Under the pieces are notes generated by a model that saw only the letters and a list, made by a program, of their open reading frames with translations, did no database searches and was not told the origin of the DNA. 64,000 bases of DNA from assembly GCF_030013205.1 (NCBI RefSeq), contig NZ_CP122648.1; one strand, written 5' to 3'. This stretch comes from Escherichia coli (GTDB lineage Bacteria; Pseudomonadota; Gammaproteobacteria; Enterobacterales; Enterobacteriaceae). Of this stretch, positions 48,162 through 57,491 are shown in pieces; position 1 is the stretch's first letter; every line of letters begins with the position of its first letter. The position numbers and the translations under genes are program-made.

Positions 48162-48755
48162 ATGAAACTGATCGTCGGGATGACAGGGGCTACCGGTGCG
48201 CCTCTTGGTGTGGCATTACTGCAAGCGCTGCGGGAGATGCCGAATGTCGAGACTCATCTGGTGATGTCGAAGTGGGCGAAAACCACTATTGAACTGGAAA
48301 CGCCTTACAGCGCTCGCGATGTTGCCGCCCTCGCAGACTTCAGCCATAACCCGGCGGATCAGGCGGCGACTATCTCTTCCGGCTCCTTTCGTACCGACGG
48401 CATGATCGTTATTCCATGCAGTATGAAAACGCTCGCCGGTATCCGCGCTGGTTACGCCGATGGCCTGGTGGGGCGCGCGGCGGACGTCGTGCTCAAAGAA
48501 GGCCGCAAACTGGTGCTGGTGCCGCGTGAAATGCCGCTTAGCACAATCCATCTCGAAAATATGCTCGCACTTTCGCGCATGGGCGTGGCGATGGTGCCGC
48601 CGATGCCTGCCTTTTATAACCATCCCGAAACGGTAGATGACATTGTCCACCACGTGGTAGCCCGCGTGCTGGATCAATTTGGCCTCGAACATCCTCACGC
48701 CAGGCGCTGGCAAGGATTGCCGCAGGCCCGGAATTTTTCTCAGGAGAATGAATAA
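48162..48755 (+). CDS. ecdB: UbiX-family flavin prenyltransferase, decarboxylase subunit B
   Basis: 197-aa ORF MKLIVGMTGATGAP, UbiX/Pad1 fold. Confidence 0.85.
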   Translation: MKLIVGMTGATGAPLGVALLQALREMPNVETHLVMSKWAKTTIELETPYSARDVAALADFSHNPADQAATISSGSFRTDGMIVIPCSMKTLAGIRAGYADGLVGRAADVVLKEGRKLVLVPREMPLSTIHLENMLALSRMGVAMVPPMPAFYNHPETVDDIVHHVVARVLDQFGLEHPHARRWQGLPQARNFSQENE

Positions 48756-50182
48756 TGGCATTTGATGATTTACGCAGCTTTTTACAGGCGCTTGATGACC
48801 ACGGCCAGTTACTGAAAATCAGCGAAGAGGTGAACGCGGAACCGGATCTGGCAGCCGCAGCCAACGCCACCGGGCGTATCGGCGACGGCGCGCCCGCGCT
48901 TTGGTTTGATAATATTCGCGGCTTTATCGATGCCCGCGTGGCAATGAACACCATCGGTTCCTGGCAGAACCACGCGATTTCCCTCGGCCTGCCGCCAAAC
49001 ACCCCGGTTAAAAAACAGATTGATGAGTTTATCCGCCGCTGGGATAACTTCCCCATTACCCCGGAGCGCCGCGCCAATCCAGCCTGGGCGCAGAACACCG
49101 TCGATGGCGACGAGATCAACCTGTTCGATATTCTGCCGCTGTTTCGTTTAAACGACGGTGATGGCGGTTTCTATCTCGATAAAGCGTGCGTGGTTTCCCG
49201 CGATCCGCTCGACCCGGATAACTTCGGCAAGCAGAACGTCGGCATCTACCGCATGGAAGTGAAGGGCAAACGTAAGCTCGGCCTGCAACCGGTGCCGATG
49301 CACGATATCGCTCTGCATCTGCATAAAGCGGAAGAACGCGGTGAAGATCTGCCGATTGCCATCACCCTGGGTAACGATCCGATCATCACCCTGATGGGCG
49401 CCACGCCGCTGAAATACGATCAGTCTGAGTACGAAATGGCGGGCGCGCTGCGCGAAAGCCCGTACCCGATCGCCACCGCCCCGCTGACCGGTTTTGATGT
49501 GCCGTGGGGCTCGGAAGTGATCCTCGAAGGGGTTATCGAAAGTCGTAAACGTGAGATTGAAGGGCCGTTCGGTGAGTTTACCGGCCACTACTCCGGCGGG
49601 CGTAACATGACCGTGGTGCGTATCGATAAAGTCTCTTACCGTACCAAACCGATTTTCGAATCGCTCTATCTTGGTATGCCGTGGACCGAAATCGACTACC
49701 TGATGGGGCCTGCCACCTGCGTGCCGCTGTATCAGCAACTGAAAGCCGAGTTCCCGGAAGTGCAGGCGGTAAACGCCATGTACACCCACGGCCTGTTGGC
49801 GATTATCTCCACCAAAAAACGCTACGGCGGCTTTGCCCGCGCGGTGGGCCTGCGTGCAATGACCACGCCGCACGGTCTGGGCTACGTGAAGATGGTGATT
49901 ATGGTCGATGAAGACGTTGATCCGTTCAACCTGCCGCAGGTGATGTGGGCGCTCTCCTCGAAAGTGAACCCGGCAGGCGACCTGGTGCAGTTGCCAAATA
50001 TGTCCGTGCTGGAACTCGACCCTGGCTCAAGCCCGGCGGGGATCACCGACAAGCTGATTATCGACGCCACCACGCCTGTCGCCCCGGACAACCGTGGTCA
50101 CTACAGCCAGCCGGTGGTGGATTTACCGGAAACCAAAGCCTGGGCTGAAAAACTGACCGCTATGCTGGCCGCACGTAAATAA
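48755..50182 (+). CDS. ecdC: UbiD-family aromatic acid decarboxylase, subunit C
   Basis: 475-aa UbiD-like ORF, start overlaps the ecdB stop. Confidence 0.85.
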   Translation: MAFDDLRSFLQALDDHGQLLKISEEVNAEPDLAAAANATGRIGDGAPALWFDNIRGFIDARVAMNTIGSWQNHAISLGLPPNTPVKKQIDEFIRRWDNFPITPERRANPAWAQNTVDGDEINLFDILPLFRLNDGDGGFYLDKACVVSRDPLDPDNFGKQNVGIYRMEVKGKRKLGLQPVPMHDIALHLHKAEERGEDLPIAITLGNDPIITLMGATPLKYDQSEYEMAGALRESPYPIATAPLTGFDVPWGSEVILEGVIESRKREIEGPFGEFTGHYSGGRNMTVVRIDKVSYRTKPIFESLYLGMPWTEIDYLMGPATCVPLYQQLKAEFPEVQAVNAMYTHGLLAIISTKKRYGGFARAVGLRAMTTPHGLGYVKMVIMVDEDVDPFNLPQVMWALSSKVNPAGDLVQLPNMSVLELDPGSSPAGITDKLIIDATTPVAPDNRGHYSQPVVDLPETKAWAEKLTAMLAARK

Positions 50183-50192
50183 GGAGAACAAG

Positions 50193-50429
50193 ATGATTTG
50201 TCCACGTTGTGCTGATGAACAGATTGAAGTGATGGCGAAATCGCCGGTAAAAGATGTCTGGACAGTCTATCAGTGCCAGCATTGCCTCTATACCTGGCGC
50301 GATACCGAACCGCTTCGCCGCACCAGCCGCGAACATTACCCGGAAGCGTTTCGTATGACGCAGAAAGACATTGATGACGCGCCAATGGTGCCGAGCATTC
50401 CGCCGCTGCTGGCGGAAGGTAAGCGTTAA
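50193..50429 (+). CDS. ecdD: small zinc-ribbon subunit D of the phenolic acid decarboxylase
   Basis: 78-aa ORF with CPRC ... CQHC motif; third gene of the UbiX/UbiD cluster. Confidence 0.7.
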   Translation: MICPRCADEQIEVMAKSPVKDVWTVYQCQHCLYTWRDTEPLRRTSREHYPEAFRMTQKDIDDAPMVPSIPPLLAEGKR

Positions 50430-50437
50430 TAAAAAGT

Positions 50438-50465
50438 GCCGGGTAGTGGCTTTGCTTTACCCGGC
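50438..50465. terminator. hairpin between convergent ecdD and pphB
   Basis: gccgggta / tacccggc 8-bp stem with 12-nt loop. Confidence 0.4.
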
Positions 50466-50718
50466 CTCATTACTTTATTTTATAAAATGACAGCCGCCCG
50501 CTTTTCGGCGATCCGGTATCAATATAAATCTGGTTTGCGAACGTCTGAATGTTATCAAACATCATATGTCCAAATATAAAATAATCAGCGCCGTTTATTT
50601 GTTGTAACTCGCCATTAAGCGATTTCTGCACACGATCAACAGGCCAGAGTAATTCTCTCTCCGCTATTTCTTTGCCAAAGAGATATTCACTCCCCGGATA
50701 ATCGGTAATGACTCCAAC

Positions 50719-51222
50719 TTACTGATAGTGTTTTATGTTCAGATAATGCCCGATGACCTTGTCATGCAGCTCCACCGATTTTGAGAACGACAGTGACTTC
50801 CGTCCCAGCCTTGCCAGATGTTGTCTCAGATTCAGGTTATGCCGCTCAATGCGCTGAGTATAACGCTTGCTGATAACGTGCAGCTTTCCCTTCAGGCGTG
50901 ATTCATACAGCGGCCAGCCATCCGTCATCCATACCACGACCTCAAAGGCCGACAGCAGGCTCAGAAGACGCTCCAGTGTGGCCAGAGTGCGTTCACCGAA
51001 GACGTGCGCCACAACCGTCCTCCGCATCCTGTCATACGCGTAAAACAGCCAGCGCTGACGTGATTTAGCACCGACGTAGCCCCACTGTTCGTCCATTTCA
51101 GCGCAGACAATCACATCACTGCCCGGTTGTATGCGCGAGGTTACCGACTGCGGCCTGAGTTTTTTAAGTGGCGGAAAATCGTGTTGAGGCCAACGCCAAT
51201 AATGCGTGCACTGGCGCGACAT
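50719..51222 (-). CDS. insB: IS1 transposase InsB reading frame
   Basis: 167-aa ORF overlapping insA; the InsAB' transposase is made by -1 frameshifting. Confidence 0.9.
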
Positions 51223-51416
51223 CCGACGCCATTCATGGCCATATCAATGATTTTCTGGTGCGTACCGGGCTGAGAGGCGGCGTAAGTGAACTGTAGTTGC
51301 CATGTTTTACGGCAGTGAGAGCAGAGATAGCGCTGATGTCCGGCGGTGCTTTTGCCGTTACGCACCACCCCGTCAGTAGCTGAACAGGAGGGACAGCTGA
51401 TAGAAACAGAAGCCAC
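51141..51416 (-). CDS. insA: IS1 protein InsA
   Basis: 91-aa [45 protein letters not shown]. Confidence 0.95.
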
Positions 51417-51708
51417 TGGAGCACCTCAAAAACACCATCATACACTAAATCAGTAAGTTGGCAGCATCACCGTCGGCTTCAGGGCAAAAAGAGAGTTGAT
51501 GTAAGCGGGATTGTAATAATTGATAGTCACCATGAATATCACCAACGGCCCATATATGGCGATAGTGATGGGCATTGATTTTTTGATAGCGTGTAGATGG
51601 CATGGTTTTACCCTGTAAAATAAGCTTTCCTATTATACAGGGTATTTTTATTTGATTCGTCAGTTGTCGTTAATATTCCCGATAGCAAAAGACTATCGGG
51701 AATTGTTA

Positions 51709-54270
51709 TTACACCAGACTCTTCAAGCGATAAATCCATTCCAGCGCCTGACGCGGGGTGAGTGAATCCGGGTCCAGGTTTTCCAGTGCCTCGACCGCAG
51801 GCGACGTTTCTTCTGGCACTGACAGCAAAGACATTTGCGTACCATCCACTTGCGTAGCGGCGGCGTTCGGCGAAATGCTTTCCAGCTCACGCAGTTTTTG
51901 CCGTGCGCGCTTAATAACCTCTTTTGGCACGCCCGCCAGAGCAGCAACCGCCAGGCCGTAGCTTTTGCTCGCCGCGCCATCCTGCACGCTGTGCATAAAG
52001 GCAATGGTGTCGCCGTGCTCCAGTGCATCAAGATGCACGTTGGCGACGCCTTCCATTTTCTCCGGTAACTGGGTTAGCTCGAAATAGTGGGTGGCAAACA
52101 ACGTCAACGCTTTAATCTTATTCGCCAGATTTTCCGCGCACGCCCACGCCAGCGACAGACCATCGTAAGTGGAGGTTCCGCGCCCAATCTCATCCATCAG
52201 CACCAGACTGTACTCGGTGGCGTTATGTAAAATATTGGCGGTTTCGGTCATCTCCACCATAAAGGTTGAACGCCCGGATGCCAGATCATCCGCTGCCCCT
52301 ACGCGGGTAAAGATGCGATCGATAGGTCCAATCTCGACTTTTTGTGCCGGTACATAGCTGCCGATGTAGGCCATCAGCGCAATCAGTGCGGTCTGGCGCA
52401 TATAGGTACTTTTACCGCCCATATTCGGACCGGTAATGATCAACATGCGACGCTGCGGCGACAGGTTCAGCGGGTTGGCGATAAATGGCTCGTTCAGTAC
52501 CTGTTCAACCACCGGATGGCGGCCTTCGGTGATGCGAATACCCGGTTTATCAATGAAGGTCGGGCAGGTGTAGTTCAGGGTATAGGCCCGCTCCGCCAGG
52601 TTAACCAGCACATCAAGTTCTGCCAGTGCGCTTGCGCTCTGTTGCAACGCTTCCAGATGCGGCAACAGCAGGTCGAACAGCTCTTCATAAAGCTGTTTTT
52701 CCAGTGCCAGTGCTTTGCCTTTTGAGGTGAGAACTTTATCTTCGTACTCTTTTAGCTCTGGAATAATGTAGCGTTCGGCGTTTTTCAGCGTCTGGCGGCG
52801 CATGTAGTTAATCGGTGCCAGATGGCTTTGTCCACGGCTGATCTGAATGTAATAACCATGCACCGCGTTAAATCCGACTTTCAGCGTGTCCAGGCCGGTA
52901 CGTTCACGCTCGCGGACTTCCAGACGCTCCAGATAATCGGTCGCGCCGTCAGCCAGCGCGCGCCACTCATCCAGCTCTTCGTTATAGCCCGATGCGATAA
53001 CACCACCGTCGCGCACCAGTACCGGCGGTGTGTCGATAATGGCCCGCTCCAGCAGATCGCGCAGTTCGGCAAACTCACCCATCTTCTCACGCAGCGCCTG
53101 TACCGGTGCACTATTGACAGTTTCTAACTGCGCGCGCAGCTCCGGCAGTTGCTGGAAAGCGTGACGCATACGGGCCAGATCGCGTGGGCGAGCAGTTCGT
53201 AAAGCCAGACGCGCCAGAATACGTTCCAGGTCGCCGACCTGACGCAGTACCGGCTGCAGCTCGGCGGTGAAATCCTGCAATGCGCCAATAGTTTGCTGGC
53301 GCTCAAGCAAGACGCGGGTATCGCGCACTGGCATATGCAGCCAGCGTTTCAGCATACGGCTGCCCATCGGCGTGACGGTGCAGTCGAGCACAGAAGCCAG
53401 CGTATTTTCCGCACCACCCGCCAGGTTCTGGGTGATTTCCAGATTACGACGCGTCGCGGCATCCATAATGATGCTGTCCTGCTCACGTTCCATGGTGATG
53501 GAACGAATATGCGGCAGAGTCGTACGTTGGGTATCTTTCGCATACTGCAACAGACAACCGGCAGCACAAAGTCCGCGCGGCGCGTTCTCGACGCCAAAAC
53601 CGACCAGATCGCGGGTCCCAAATTGCAGATTCAACTGCTGGCGCGCGGTGTCGATTTCAAACTCCCACAGCGGGCGACGGCGCAGGCCGCGACGGCCTTC
53701 AATTAACGACATTTCAGCAAAATCTTCTGCATACAGCAGTTCCGCAGGATTAGTGCGTTGCAGTTCTGCCGCCATCGTTTCCCGGTCAGCCGGTTCGCTC
53801 AGGCGAAAACGACCGGAACTGATATCCAGCGTCGCGTAGCCGAAACCTTTACTGTCCTGCCAGATAGCCGCCAGCAGGTTATCCTGACGCTCCTGCAACA
53901 GCGCTTCATCGCTGATGGTGCCCGGCGTAACGATACGCACAACTTTGCGCTCAACCGGACCTTTGCTGGTCGCTGGATCGCCAATTTGTTCGCAGATGGC
54001 AACGGACTCGCCCTGATTCACCAGTTTGGCGAGGTAGTTTTCCACCGCATGGTAGGGGATCCCCGCCATTGGGATCGGCTCTCCCGCCGAAGCACCGCGT
54101 TTGGTCAGTGAAATATCCAGCAGTTGCGACGCGCGTTTTGCGTCGTCATAAAACAGTTCATAAAAATCACCCATCCGGTAAAACAGCAGGATCTCGGGAT
54201 GCTGGGCTTTCAGCTTGAGATATTGCTGCATCATGGGCGTATGGGCATCGAAATTTTCTATTGCACTCAT
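51709..54270 (-). CDS. mutS: DNA mismatch repair protein MutS
   Basis: 853-aa ORF with Walker [10 protein letters not shown] and canonical MutS domains. Confidence 0.95.
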
Positions 54271-54556: not shown

Positions 54557-54901
54557 ATGTCCGGCAAGCGTATCTCTCGTGAAAAACTGACGATTAAAAA
54601 AATGATCGATCTTTATCAAGCGAAATGCCCGCAGGCGTCAGCGGAGCCGGAGCATTACGACGCGCTGTTTGCCTACGCGCAAAAGCGGCTGGATAAATGT
54701 GTGTTCGGCGAAGAGAAACCAGCCTGTAAGCAGTGTCCGGTGCACTGTTACCAGCCTGCAAAGCGTGAAGAGATGAAACAGATTATGCGTTGGGCCGGGC
54801 CGAGAATGCTGTGGCGTCATCCGATCTTAACCGTGCGTCATCTCATCGATGACAAGCGTCCGGTGCCGGAGTTGCCAGAAAAATATCGTCCAAAGAAATA
54901 A
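54557..54901 (+). CDS. ygbA: nitrosative-stress-inducible protein YgbA
   Basis: 114-aa ORF with Cys-rich motif CKQCPVHCYQ; divergent from mutS. Confidence 0.8.
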   Translation: MSGKRISREKLTIKKMIDLYQAKCPQASAEPEHYDALFAYAQKRLDKCVFGEEKPACKQCPVHCYQPAKREEMKQIMRWAGPRMLWRHPILTVRHLIDDKRPVPELPEKYRPKK

Positions 54902-54905
54902 ATCT

Positions 54906-54930
54906 GCCGGAGAGCCATACTCTCCGGCAA
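54906..54930. terminator. hairpin between convergent ygbA and the Mop gene
   Basis: gccggagag-ccatact-ctctccggc. Confidence 0.5.
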
Positions 54931-54939
54931 ATAAGGCGT

Positions 54940-55368
54940 TTACGCTTTGGTGGCAATCAGGATGGCTGATGCTTTGATCAATGCAATAACGCGCGAGCCA
55001 GTGGTGAGTTTCATTTCATCCTGACTTTCATTTGTTACCACTGCCACAATTTCAAAACCCGCATCCGTTTTGATATGGACAGTGGCGTTCACTGCGCCTT
55101 CGGTGATTGTCGACACGCTGCCAGCAAACTGGTTGCGAGCAGAGAATTTCAGTCCACAGTCTTCCGTTGCCAGCGTTACCCACGGGGCTTTAATCAGGGC
55201 AATCGCTTCTTTCCCTTTCGCCAGACCCAGCGCTTGCTGGCTGCTGTGAGTCACAATTGCCACCAGCTTTGCACCACCTGCCAGCGTCAGTTCTACTTCA
55301 TCATTCACAGCGCCCATTGCTACTGCGCTAACTGTTCCGGTTAATTGATTTCTTGCTGAAACTGCCAT
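54940..55368 (-). CDS. tandem Mop/TOBE-domain molybdate-binding protein (molbindin)
   Basis: 142 aa from the ATG at 55368 with RBS aaaggagg 5 nt upstream; two about 70-aa repeats each starting SARNQ and ending IKA; 45 bp downstream of the fhlA stop. Confidence 0.7.
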   Translation of the reverse strand: MAVSARNQLTGTVSAVAMGAVNDEVELTLAGGAKLVAIVTHSSQQALGLAKGKEAIALIKAPWVTLATEDCGLKFSARNQFAGSVSTITEGAVNATVHIKTDAGFEIVAVVTNESQDEMKLTTGSRVIALIKASAILIATKA

Positions 55369-55412
55369 ACTGCCTCCTTTCATTGAATGTTGATCGAGTA
55401 TAACCACATCTG

Positions 55413-57491
55413 TTAAATCAATGCCGATTTATCAATTCCAAGCCGCTTCATCCGTGACAGCAGGGTCGTGCGTTTCAGCCCCAGACGTTGCGCAGCGCCT
55501 TTAGGCCCGGCAACCACGCCGTTGGTTTCTTTCAGCACGCGAACAATCAACTGATATTCATCTTCGCCCTCCTGGGCGACAACCGTTGCGGCGGGCGGCG
55601 TTTCTGGTTCCGGTAAAACAATATCTGGCAGTGACAGCTGCAGCACGTTGCCGCGTGTTAGCAATACCGCGCGCTCAATGACGTTTTCCAGTTCGCGTAC
55701 GTTACCCGGCCACTCCATGTTGCTCAGGATGCGCAGCGTCTCGGCAGGAATGCTGTCGATATTGCGCCCCAGACGACGGGCAATTTTGAAGGTAAAGGCT
55801 TTCGCCAGCAGCGGAATATCTTCCGGACGCTCGCGTAGTGGCGGCAGGTGAATCGGGAATACGTTCAGGCGGTAATAGAGATCGCTACGGAACTCACGGT
55901 CGGCGACCATTTTTTTCAGATCGCGGTTAGTTGCGGCGATTAGACGCACGTCCGTCTGAATGATTTTGTTGCTGCCGAGACGTTCAAACTCCTGTTCCTG
56001 TAATACACGCAGCAACTTCGGCTGTAACTCCAGTGGCATATCGCCCACTTCGTCGAGGAACAGGGAGCTTTTATCCGCCAGTTCAAAACGACCAATGCGC
56101 TGGGCGCTGGCACCGGTAAAAGCCCCACGCTCATGACCAAACAGATCGCTCTCCAGCAATCCGGCAGGCATCGCCGCGCAGTTCATTTTGACCATGCGGC
56201 GATTATTACGCCCACTGAGATTATGGATCGCGCGGGCAATCAGCTCTTTACCTGTACCAGTTTCACCGAGAATCAGCACGGTACTGTCGCTTTGCGCCAC
56301 CATTTCAACTTGTTTAAGTACGCTGTACATGGCTTCGCTGCGGCCAATAATCTCGCCAAATTCACTATCAACATTGTTGAGCTGCTCGGTCAGGGCGAGG
56401 TTTTCATCAACCAGCCGTTCTTTCAGACGATGGATTTCCTGATAGGCGAGGGCGTTATCGACAGCGATTGCCACACGTTCGGCAATCTGGCGCAGTAAAT
56501 TCAGATTGGTAGTGGTAAACACTTTCTCTTCGCATTGCGCCAGTTTCAGCACGCCCAGCATGGTGTCGCCAGACATCAGCGGTAACAGGCACAAGGTTTG
56601 AATCTGGTTGCCCCAGGTGTCGAACAACATACGTTCATAGGGGGCTAAATCGTCCCGCTCGTGGAGATTAATCAACAGCATCTCTTTACTTTTGAAGACG
56701 CGTTCGGTGAGGGTTCCGGCTTCATCGACTTCGCTCTGTTCGTGGGCGGGATGCTGTTTATCAAGATAGTGAGTGGAGTAGATGTTGAGTTTGTTTTTAC
56801 GGTGGCTGCGTAAGACGATGCTGATATCGTCAATGTCGAAGTAGTAATGGATTTCTTTGGCGACTTCGCTGACCAGTTCGTCCATATCCAGGCGGGAAAG
56901 CACCGCGTTGGTAATGGCAACCAGGATGCGGAAGTTATCGCGTTCCCGGCATAACAACTCATAGTCGACATTGTTAACGACGCGACTCTGGATTTGTTCG
57001 GTGACGACAGAAACGATCTGCGTAAATGTTTGCAGACGATTGAACTCTTTTTCGCTCCAGGGGCGATCGTCATAACGAATAAATTCACAGCCACCAAAAA
57101 TATGCCCTTCCGCCGCCAGTGGCATCAGGCAATAGTGACCAAATTTTGGGTATAGCCCACCTGCGGCCAGCTGCGGCCAGGTTTCACAAAATTCTTCGTA
57201 ACTGCAATGCAGCGTATCAGGGCGCGACAAAATGCTGCGTACCGGACCGTGTGCCAGAACAGTTTCGTCTTCATATTTAATGGGGGTGTCTTTTTCACGC
57301 GATGCGTAATAAGACGCACGTTGAGTCTGCGCTTGCCACAACACAATAGCCGCGTTGTCGGCGAGCGCAGAACGCTTTACCAGTTGCGAAAGAGCCTCAC
57401 ACAGCGAGGCCAGATCGGGCTGCTGCAATAGTGTCCGAGTGATGTCGAACAACCCTTGCTGTCCGAGATCACTCATCGGTGTATATGACAT
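55413..57491 (-). CDS. fhlA: formate hydrogenlyase transcriptional activator (sigma-54 enhancer-binding protein)
   Basis: 692 aa from the internal ATG (MSYTPMSDLGQQG); GAF domains, AAA+ sigma-54 interaction module (GETGTGKE, GAFTGA) and C-terminal HTH. Confidence 0.9.
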   Translation of the reverse strand: MSYTPMSDLGQQGLFDITRTLLQQPDLASLCEALSQLVKRSALADNAAIVLWQAQTQRASYYASREKDTPIKYEDETVLAHGPVRSILSRPDTLHCSYEEFCETWPQLAAGGLYPKFGHYCLMPLAAEGHIFGGCEFIRYDDRPWSEKEFNRLQTFTQIVSVVTEQIQSRVVNNVDYELLCRERDNFRILVAITNAVLSRLDMDELVSEVAKEIHYYFDIDDISIVLRSHRKNKLNIYSTHYLDKQHPAHEQSEVDEAGTLTERVFKSKEMLLINLHERDDLAPYERMLFDTWGNQIQTLCLLPLMSGDTMLGVLKLAQCEEKVFTTTNLNLLRQIAERVAIAVDNALAYQEIHRLKERLVDENLALTEQLNNVDSEFGEIIGRSEAMYSVLKQVEMVAQSDSTVLILGETGTGKELIARAIHNLSGRNNRRMVKMNCAAMPAGLLESDLFGHERGAFTGASAQRIGRFELADKSSLFLDEVGDMPLELQPKLLRVLQEQEFERLGSNKIIQTDVRLIAATNRDLKKMVADREFRSDLYYRLNVFPIHLPPLRERPEDIPLLAKAFTFKIARRLGRNIDSIPAETLRILSNMEWPGNVRELENVIERAVLLTRGNVLQLSLPDIVLPEPETPPAATVVAQEGEDEYQLIVRVLKETNGVVAGPKGAAQRLGLKRTTLLSRMKRLGIDKSALI

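Follow-up and report, generated by a model that had tools for sequence, protein, structure and literature searches.

The window analyzed here, a stretch of 64,000 nucleotides of Escherichia coli contig NZ_CP122648.1, carries a small gene between fhlA and ygbA that we refer to as mop (Table 1). Translation starts at an ATG at 55368 and stops at a TAA at 54940-54942. The 142-amino-acid product is RefSeq WP_000301062.1, annotated as a "TOBE domain-containing protein." The list of open reading frames also contains a longer mop frame that starts with GTG (155 amino acids); RefSeq and all 46 enterobacterial orthologues take the 142-amino-acid start, and an (A/T)GGAGG motif is aligned at the position of the window's Shine-Dalgarno sequence in nearly all of the orthologues. 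The first-pass annotation had described an open reading frame of this length with a strong ribosome binding site, and its coordinates, length, strand, and ribosome binding site were all correct. The neighbors it named, fhlA and ygbA, were borne out by open reading frames, NCBIfam, and RefSeq. It was also right to put mop directly downstream of fhlA on the same strand, but 44 nt rather than 45 separate the fhlA stop codon (55413-55415) from the mop ATG. On the other side, ygbA is convergent with mop, with 38 nt between the two stop codons, and mutS follows at 51709-54270. In a RefSeq genome with 100% identity across this region, the annotated order is hycA / hypABCDE-fhlA-"TOBE domain-containing protein" / ygbA / mutS. 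The GC content of mop is 0.506, versus 0.518 for the window, and no mobility genes or repeats border mop at the locus.

Table 1. Features in and around mop, in window coordinates
Feature	Position	Strand	Basis or remark
mop CDS, ModG-type di-Mop molbindin (predicted)	54940-55368	minus	ORF, Pfam, NCBIfam, RefSeq
Shine-Dalgarno AGGAGG	55373-55378	minus	Read from sequence; 4 nt before mop ATG
fhlA-mop spacer, 44 nt	55369-55412	minus	No terminator in scan; fold no better than shuffles
TATACT within GGYTATAMW element	55397-55402	minus	Spacer alignment across genera; ~30 nt before mop ATG
fhlA, formate hydrogenlyase transcriptional activator, 692 aa	55413-57491	minus	RefSeq annotation of identical record, ORF
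Bidirectional hairpin terminator common to mop and ygbA	54902-54932	both	Scan; 14-bp stem
ygbA, nitrous oxide-stimulated promoter family protein, 114 aa	54557-54901	plus	NCBIfam NF007713 (268 bits), RefSeq
Segment absent from K-12-type E. coli, ~473 bp	54940-55412		mop stop codon to just before fhlA stop

Profile searches found two tandem Mop/TOBE domains of ~70 amino acids in the mop product and no other domain, in agreement with the tandem molbindin proposed in the first-pass annotation. Pfam TOBE (PF03459) matched at residues 4-66 (E value, 1.6e-17) and 76-137 (6.2e-16), and the NCBIfam "Mop" model TIGR00638 gave two matches and 142 bits against a cutoff of 55. The two halves of the protein are 43% identical to one another. 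Among known structures, the closest relative was ModG of Azotobacter vinelandii. A phmmer comparison with ModG 1h9j gave an E value of 5e-33 over residues 1-140, and BLASTP aligned the two proteins at 49% identity over their full length with 0 gaps. The next-best PDB matches were the di-Mop domain of ModE (E value, about 1e-15) and then single-domain Mop/Tub proteins. An AF2 monomer model built on 23 homologues had a mean pLDDT of 96.3, and its best Foldseek matches were again ModG (1h9j, 1h9k, and 1h9m; TM, 0.94-0.95), with a TM of 0.95 and an rmsd of 1.3 Å to 1h9j. The mop product is therefore predicted by this model to adopt the di-Mop beta-barrel fold.

In Tub/Mop proteins, the residues that bind the oxyanion are Ser4, Arg6, Ala20-Val21-Asn22, Ser40, Lys60, and Ala61; the type-2 site consists of Ser4, Arg6, Ser40, Lys60, and Ala61, and the type-1 site consists of the Ala20-Val21-Asn22 backbone (PMC11980592). 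The corresponding positions of the mop product are S4, R6, A20-V21-N22, T40, K60, and A61 in domain 1 and S76, R78, A92-V93-N94, T112, K132, and A133 in domain 2. Each of the ten type-2 residues is invariant or reaches at least 90% conservation in the alignments of 46 orthologues and of 23 sequences, and the type-1 motif is found in both domains (G19-A20-V21-N22 and G91-A92-V93-N94). Across the 46 orthologues, 59 of the 142 residues are invariant, all of the ligand residues included. Single-domain Mop/Tub proteins (Clostridium pasteurianum MopII, 1GUG; S. ovata Mop, 1FR3; E. limosum Tub, 9BEB) match each half of the mop product, with E values from 2e-9 to 3e-5 and 40% identity to Tub, and their ligand residues fall at identically numbered positions. 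These proteins have ~70 amino acids and form homohexamers, whereas the mop product is two fused domains, so that three of its chains would equal that assembly. By homology, such a trimer would take up as many as eight molybdate or tungstate ions, two in type-1 sites on the threefold axis and six in type-2 sites at the domain interfaces.

The likeness to ModG extends to overall architecture. ModG, a cytoplasmic protein (PDB 1H9J, 1H9K, and 1H9M), has the same length and consists only of two fused Mop domains, and both domains of each protein carry the SARN, GAVN, T-x-x-S, and KA ligand motifs. The genomic setting differs: mop lies behind fhlA in the hyp-fhlA hydrogenase/formate hydrogenlyase cluster of nondiazotrophic enterobacteria, whereas A. 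vinelandii modG is, we assume, in the mod locus. ModG is a trimer with eight bound molybdates that acts in molybdenum homeostasis and contributes to synthesis of the nitrogenase FeMo cofactor (PMC11980592).

The C-terminal di-Mop part of E. coli ModE (PDB 1H9R/1H9S, 1O7L, and 1B9M) has the same fold (TM, 0.88-0.89) at 34-36% identity, and the SARNQ, T-x-x-S, and KAPW molybdate-binding motifs of its first Mop domain recur in that of the mop product. However, the second Mop domain of ModE is degenerate (NADNQ), and neither ModE domain has the GAVN type-1 motif that the mop product carries. The N-terminal winged-helix DNA-binding domain of ModE is missing altogether from the mop product, and the PDB match to ModE covers only residues 125-260. 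The profile models agree with this. The ModE model (263 positions) aligned only at positions 124-261, with 88 bits against a cutoff of 369, and the ModC/WtpC models matched at their C-terminal end alone, over ~65 positions and far under their cutoffs. Pfam and NCBIfam profile searches found no DNA-binding or ATPase domain. Thus, the mop product is neither a ModE transcription factor nor a transporter subunit of the ModC/TupC type. The absence of those domains, together with ModE and ModC models that match in their TOBE parts only, clearly places it among predicted ModG-type molbindins, and every feature of that family open to sequence and modelling was found. The name "modE" (PMC7232297) and the database labels "molybdate transport system regulatory protein" and "transporter" are misnomers for this gene. 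A fragment derived from ModE was also considered and ruled out: identity is 49% to ModG versus about 35% to the ModE C terminus, and the second domain is intact.

How mop would be transcribed may be judged in part from the signals around it. The fhlA-mop spacer has a predicted RNA fold of only -8.6 kcal/mol (z score against shuffles, +0.58). The hairpin beyond the mop stop codon is much stronger, at -25.2 kcal/mol (z, -6.4) in the minus-strand RNA, where it is followed by the U-rich AUUUAUUUC, and -20.7 kcal/mol (z, -5.1) in the plus-strand RNA of ygbA. In K-12, the homologous hairpin stands directly 3' of fhlA. Because the spacer is free of terminators, the strong hairpin comes only after mop, and the K-12 hairpin comes after fhlA, read-through from fhlA into mop is the simplest model, and cotranscription of the two genes is plausible. 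Within the spacer, GGYTATA(C/A)(T/A) is kept in Escherichia, Citrobacter, Pseudocitrobacter, Kluyvera, and Pluralibacter, and the remaining spacer is variable. A consensus promoter scan found no full sigma-70 promoter in the spacer. When we compared GGYTATACT by eye with an extended -10 element, the sigma-54 -24/-12 elements, and the ModE operator (TATAT-N7-TAYAT), we saw only partial, phase-shifted matches, and we found neither a -35 partner nor a complete ModE operator for the TATACT. This element may be the -10 box of an internal mop promoter or a regulatory half-site. For structured RNAs, including a Moco riboswitch, Rfam gave no match of note near mop.

In E. coli, the gene is variable. 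The 473-bp segment made up of mop and its spacer was found in 1,892 of 5,426 complete genomes (35%), always as a single chromosomal copy, and in 1,889 of these 1,892 genomes the match is of high identity and covers 80% or more of the segment. We counted the alternative allele with a 121-bp probe across the fhlA/ygbA junction, requiring a match over at least 80% of its length; 3,505 genomes (65%), the MG1655 records included, carry this K-12-type junction. Since the two alleles sum to 5,394 of the 5,426 genomes, there are essentially two states at this site. Relative to the window allele, the K-12 allele lacks the stretch reaching from the fhlA stop to the mop stop, and in the alignment with the K-12-like strain JCL301 the two ends share only TAA microhomology. 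Carriers among the matches listed were strains 536, APEC O18, IMT5155, and ST131, all of which we take to be phylogroup B2, together with an O78:H4 APEC and the porcine ETEC/O139:H1 lineage that includes the window. Noncarriers among the matches listed were K-12 strains, DH5alpha, JM83, O157:H7, O55:H7, and O157:H16. Strain IAI39 presumably belongs to phylogroup F. It was reported as mop positive (Lerminiaux 2020, PMC7232297). The amplicon between fhlA and mutS was 1,673 bp in CFT073 versus 1,208 bp in MG1655 and EDL933, and the CFT073 gene c3292, the mop homologue, was given as a "putative molybdenum-pterin-binding protein" (Ewers 2014, PMC4209514); the larger amplicon and c3292 together mark CFT073 as mop positive. 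The larger amplicon occurred only in pattern III strains, whose main restriction fragment length polymorphism (RFLP) type was exclusively phylogroup B2 (PMC4209514).

One E. coli strain has a third arrangement. In FDAARGOS_1285 (NZ_CP070152.1, locus L053, 788-1626), an IS1A element truncates mop, which is annotated as a partial pseudogene, and joins it to nlpD. The genes ygbA and mutS, the mutS-rpoS variable region, and rpoS are apparently deleted, and the strain would be a natural mutS/rpoS deletion strain.

Outside E. coli, the arrangement seen in the window is widespread. A scan with one genome per species returned 49 mop loci, a minimum because E. coli and E. fergusonii were not returned; we checked the loci of E. 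fergusonii and Salmonella through the protein index instead. At 36 of the 49 loci, which span more than ten genera, fhlA lies directly upstream of the mop homologue: E. albertii, the cryptic Escherichia clade, Citrobacter, Pseudocitrobacter, Klebsiella, Raoultella, Kluyvera, Enterobacter, Pluralibacter, Yokenella, Lelliottia, and Kosakonia. Many of the 36 also have a convergent ygbA 3' of mop, and the order in E. fergusonii is hypD-hypE-fhlA-mop-ygbA. The gene has 142 codons at 46 of 47 enterobacterial loci, the fhlA-mop spacer is 44-60 nt across many genera, and the divergence of the protein tracks that of FhlA. Against the window copy, dN/dS ranges from 0.03 to 0.09 (median, 0.08; 585 pairs), and mop is thus under strong purifying selection where it is kept. 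The outgroup synteny, the purifying selection, the native GC content, and borders without a mobile element show that mop is ancestral between fhlA and ygbA and that it was removed from K-12/O157-type E. coli by a ~473-bp deletion reaching from one stop codon to the other.

These data change how the variation is to be read. The first-pass annotation had stated that K-12 runs directly from fhlA to ygbA, and both the MG1655 records and JCL301 confirmed this. It had taken mop for accessory content on that ground, a label that is misleading in view of the conserved fhlA-mop-ygbA order in outgroups, the native GC content, and the lack of a mobile element. With mop missing from K-12 and both TOBE domains detected, neither of the two findings that would have undone its account was made. 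The presence/absence comparison that it called for confirmed variability within E. coli, as counted above, and absence of mop from the fhlA locus in Salmonella. There, on two contigs, ygbA abuts fhlA across a 61-bp gap whose junction sequence is unlike that of K-12, with sitABCD beyond. Salmonella thus lost mop at the fhlA locus separately from K-12 and by a different deletion.

Pairing of mop with fhlA is not universal. Some Salmonella serovars have mop homologues, 86-89% identical, that are sited away from fhlA. In Phytobacter diazotrophicus (L035, 605-4429), hypB, hypD, and hypE are followed by mop and ygbA; fhlA has been lost and mop kept, the reverse of the K-12 situation, and loci L040 and L047 probably have the same fhlA-less hyp-mop layout. 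One Raoultella has the order 6-phospho-beta-glucosidase-mop-sitA. In Serratia, Cedecea, and Edwardsiella, mop stands among unrelated neighbors, away from the hyp and fhlA genes.

Several of these loci had further features of their own. On Salmonella enterica contigs L054 to L056 and L059 to L061, mop neighbors fimbrial chaperone/usher genes, IS66/IS21 fragments, and a CaiF/GrlA-like regulator. It also occurs in Salmonella near an MsrPQ-like molybdoenzyme pair (Oxidored_molyb plus cytochrome b), and these settings are island-like. On a Salmonella diarizonae contig, mop comes after a sigma-54-dependent PTS regulator. In Enterobacter sp. EA-1 (L045, 2977-4340), a frameshift leaves mop with a 113-amino-acid product, and no more than the C-terminal half of FhlA could be detected upstream of it, which suggests that the whole fhlA-mop unit is decaying there.

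One alternative, implied by the first-pass annotation, is that mop entered the fhlA-ygbA interval of some E. coli lineages by horizontal acquisition. In its favor are the presence of mop in just 35% of complete E. coli genomes and the IS elements that adjoin the Salmonella copies; the fhlA-mutS interval is moreover a known hotspot for islands, SPI-1 included (PMC7232297). However, the gene occupies the same place in the same orientation in E. albertii, E. fergusonii, the cryptic Escherichia clade, Citrobacter, Klebsiella, Kluyvera, Enterobacter, and others, and its protein has diverged in parallel with FhlA. Its GC content is native, it lacks flanking repeats and mobility genes, and a single K-12-type junction is seen, whose ends are the two stop codons. 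We consider acquisition extremely unlikely. A recent insertion is ruled out by the outgroup synteny, and mop does not qualify as a genomic islet, given its occurrence at the same site in outgroups, its native GC content, and borders formed by two stop codons. A second alternative is that mop is a functionless relic drifting toward loss in E. coli. The gene is gone from most E. coli genomes and from the fhlA locus of Salmonella, and damaged copies occur, with a frameshift in Enterobacter sp. EA-1 and an IS1 truncation in one E. coli strain. However, the low dN/dS, the 59 invariant residues with the ligand residues among them, the coverage of 80% or more of the segment in all but three of the E. 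coli genomes that match it, and the conserved ribosome binding site make a relic very unlikely.

Expression of hyc and fdhF requires molybdate, ModE, and FhlA (PMC3149613), and the mop product could be a regulatory partner of FhlA that senses molybdate and modulates FhlA or that titrates ModE-molybdate. In that case it would do more than store metal and would account for the portion of molybdate control of hyc and fdhF that does not depend on ModE. The tight conservation of the fhlA adjacency over many genera is consistent with such a role, as is the report that the molybdate dependence of hyc and fdhF is only partly through ModE (PMC3149613), and a protein with eight sites would alter the free molybdate available to ModE. 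However, the mop product has no DNA-binding or other effector domain, the molybdate response is present in K-12 without mop, and mop outlasts fhlA in Phytobacter and is far from fhlA in Serratia, Cedecea, and Edwardsiella. A regulatory partnership with FhlA is therefore unlikely. The proposal that the mop product is more than a passive store and sets the molybdate or tungstate threshold of the FhlA/ModE formate regulon, through contact with FhlA or titration of the oxyanion from ModE and MoeA, is in our judgment distinctly unlikely.

We favor instead, with a probability of roughly 0.65, the reading that mop encodes a cytoplasmic ModG-type store or buffer, that it is the ancestral last gene of the hypABCDE-fhlA cluster of enterobacteria, that it is expressed by read-through from fhlA, and that it has been deleted in K-12/O157-type strains. 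The lack of a DNA-binding or ATPase domain argues that the product would be a binder, store, or buffer rather than a regulator or a transporter subunit. Its transcription would come most likely from fhlA read-through, possibly with an internal promoter in addition, and would end at the hairpin shared with ygbA. The protein would then be made under anaerobic, formate-inducing conditions, alongside the molybdo-selenoenzyme FdhH and the molybdate-dependent hyc and fdhF, where it may hold a local pool of molybdate or sequester tungstate. A molybdate (or tungstate) store or buffer for the FHL regulon is thus the role that we infer to be best supported by sequence and gene order. Direct regulation through FhlA is the weaker proposal because K-12 responds to molybdate without mop and mop survives without fhlA elsewhere. 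The loss of mop from K-12/O157-type E. coli and, separately, from Salmonella means that it is dispensable for FHL itself. The first-pass annotation had suggested that mop could buffer or sense molybdate for this regulon. The link between mop and FHL is not obligatory, however: taken as a strict requirement, that idea is weakened by regulation in K-12 without mop, by the Phytobacter mop without fhlA, and by the placement of the gene in Serratia, Cedecea, and Edwardsiella.

A literature search found no functional study of the fhlA-linked mop, c3292, or STM2860 protein. The annotation of mop (RefSeq and CFT073 c3292) and its presence/absence polymorphism were already known, the latter from passing mentions by Ewers 2014 (PMC4209514) and Lerminiaux 2020 (PMC7232297, as "modE"); the supplement of the SPI-1 paper holds nothing on mop. 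What we add is that mop is ancestral and syntenic with fhlA across the Enterobacteriaceae, that K-12-type E. coli and Salmonella lost it by different deletions, and that it is strongly constrained where it is kept. On present evidence, mop is a routine molbindin gene that already has an annotation and whose location is mildly interesting; its loss is tolerated by K-12 and Salmonella. We regard the result as a useful correction and a reasonable lead for research on formate hydrogenlyase or Mo/W homeostasis, not as a surprise.

Most enterobacteria keep mop directly behind fhlA, but K-12 does not, and the classical work on molybdate control of FHL (ModE, MoeA, and FhlA) was all done in K-12, which is a natural mop deletion mutant. 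If the product serves as a molybdate or tungstate buffer in fermenting cells, differences between strains in FdhH/FHL activity at trace molybdenum could be due to it, and it could alter the response to tungstate of extraintestinal-pathogenic B2 strains (mop positive) versus commensal or laboratory A/B1 strains. The polymorphism has mop present in known B2 strains and one reported F strain and absent from K-12/O157-type strains. Should the product set the threshold of the formate regulon after all, this polymorphism would lead to heritable differences between lineages in H2/formate metabolism at low molybdenum and in tungstate sensitivity, and the K-12 studies of molybdate and FHL would have used a strain without one ancestral component.

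The region 3' of mop also differs between the two E. coli alleles. The terminator and the ygbA 3' end of the K-12-type allele (window 54895-54945 compared with L001 1900-1950 and L010 4430-4480) are much more diverged from the window allele than the flanking sequence is. The K-12-type hairpin has a compensatory G/C swap in its stem and a different loop, and its YgbA has 117 amino acids versus 114 in the window allele. The K-12 hairpin allele shares "AATTGCCGGAxAG...CTGTCCGGCATACT" with Citrobacter amalonaticus, in which mop is still present, which points to two old alleles of the hairpin. Either the mop deletion arose on a C. amalonaticus-like hairpin allele or it entered by recombination.

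The remaining observations concern the surroundings of the locus. The intergenic region between mutS and ygbA holds a RefSeq "hypothetical protein" of 44 amino acids (WP_000611937.1; 54346-54480, plus strand) in mop-positive and K-12-type genomes alike. Past mutS, on its far side from ygbA, pphB and the hydroxyarylic acid decarboxylase BCD genes lie at about 48500-51700; this is the known mutS-rpoS polymorphic region. A 4.4-kb part of the window matches porcine ETEC and O139:H1 edema disease strains at 100% identity.
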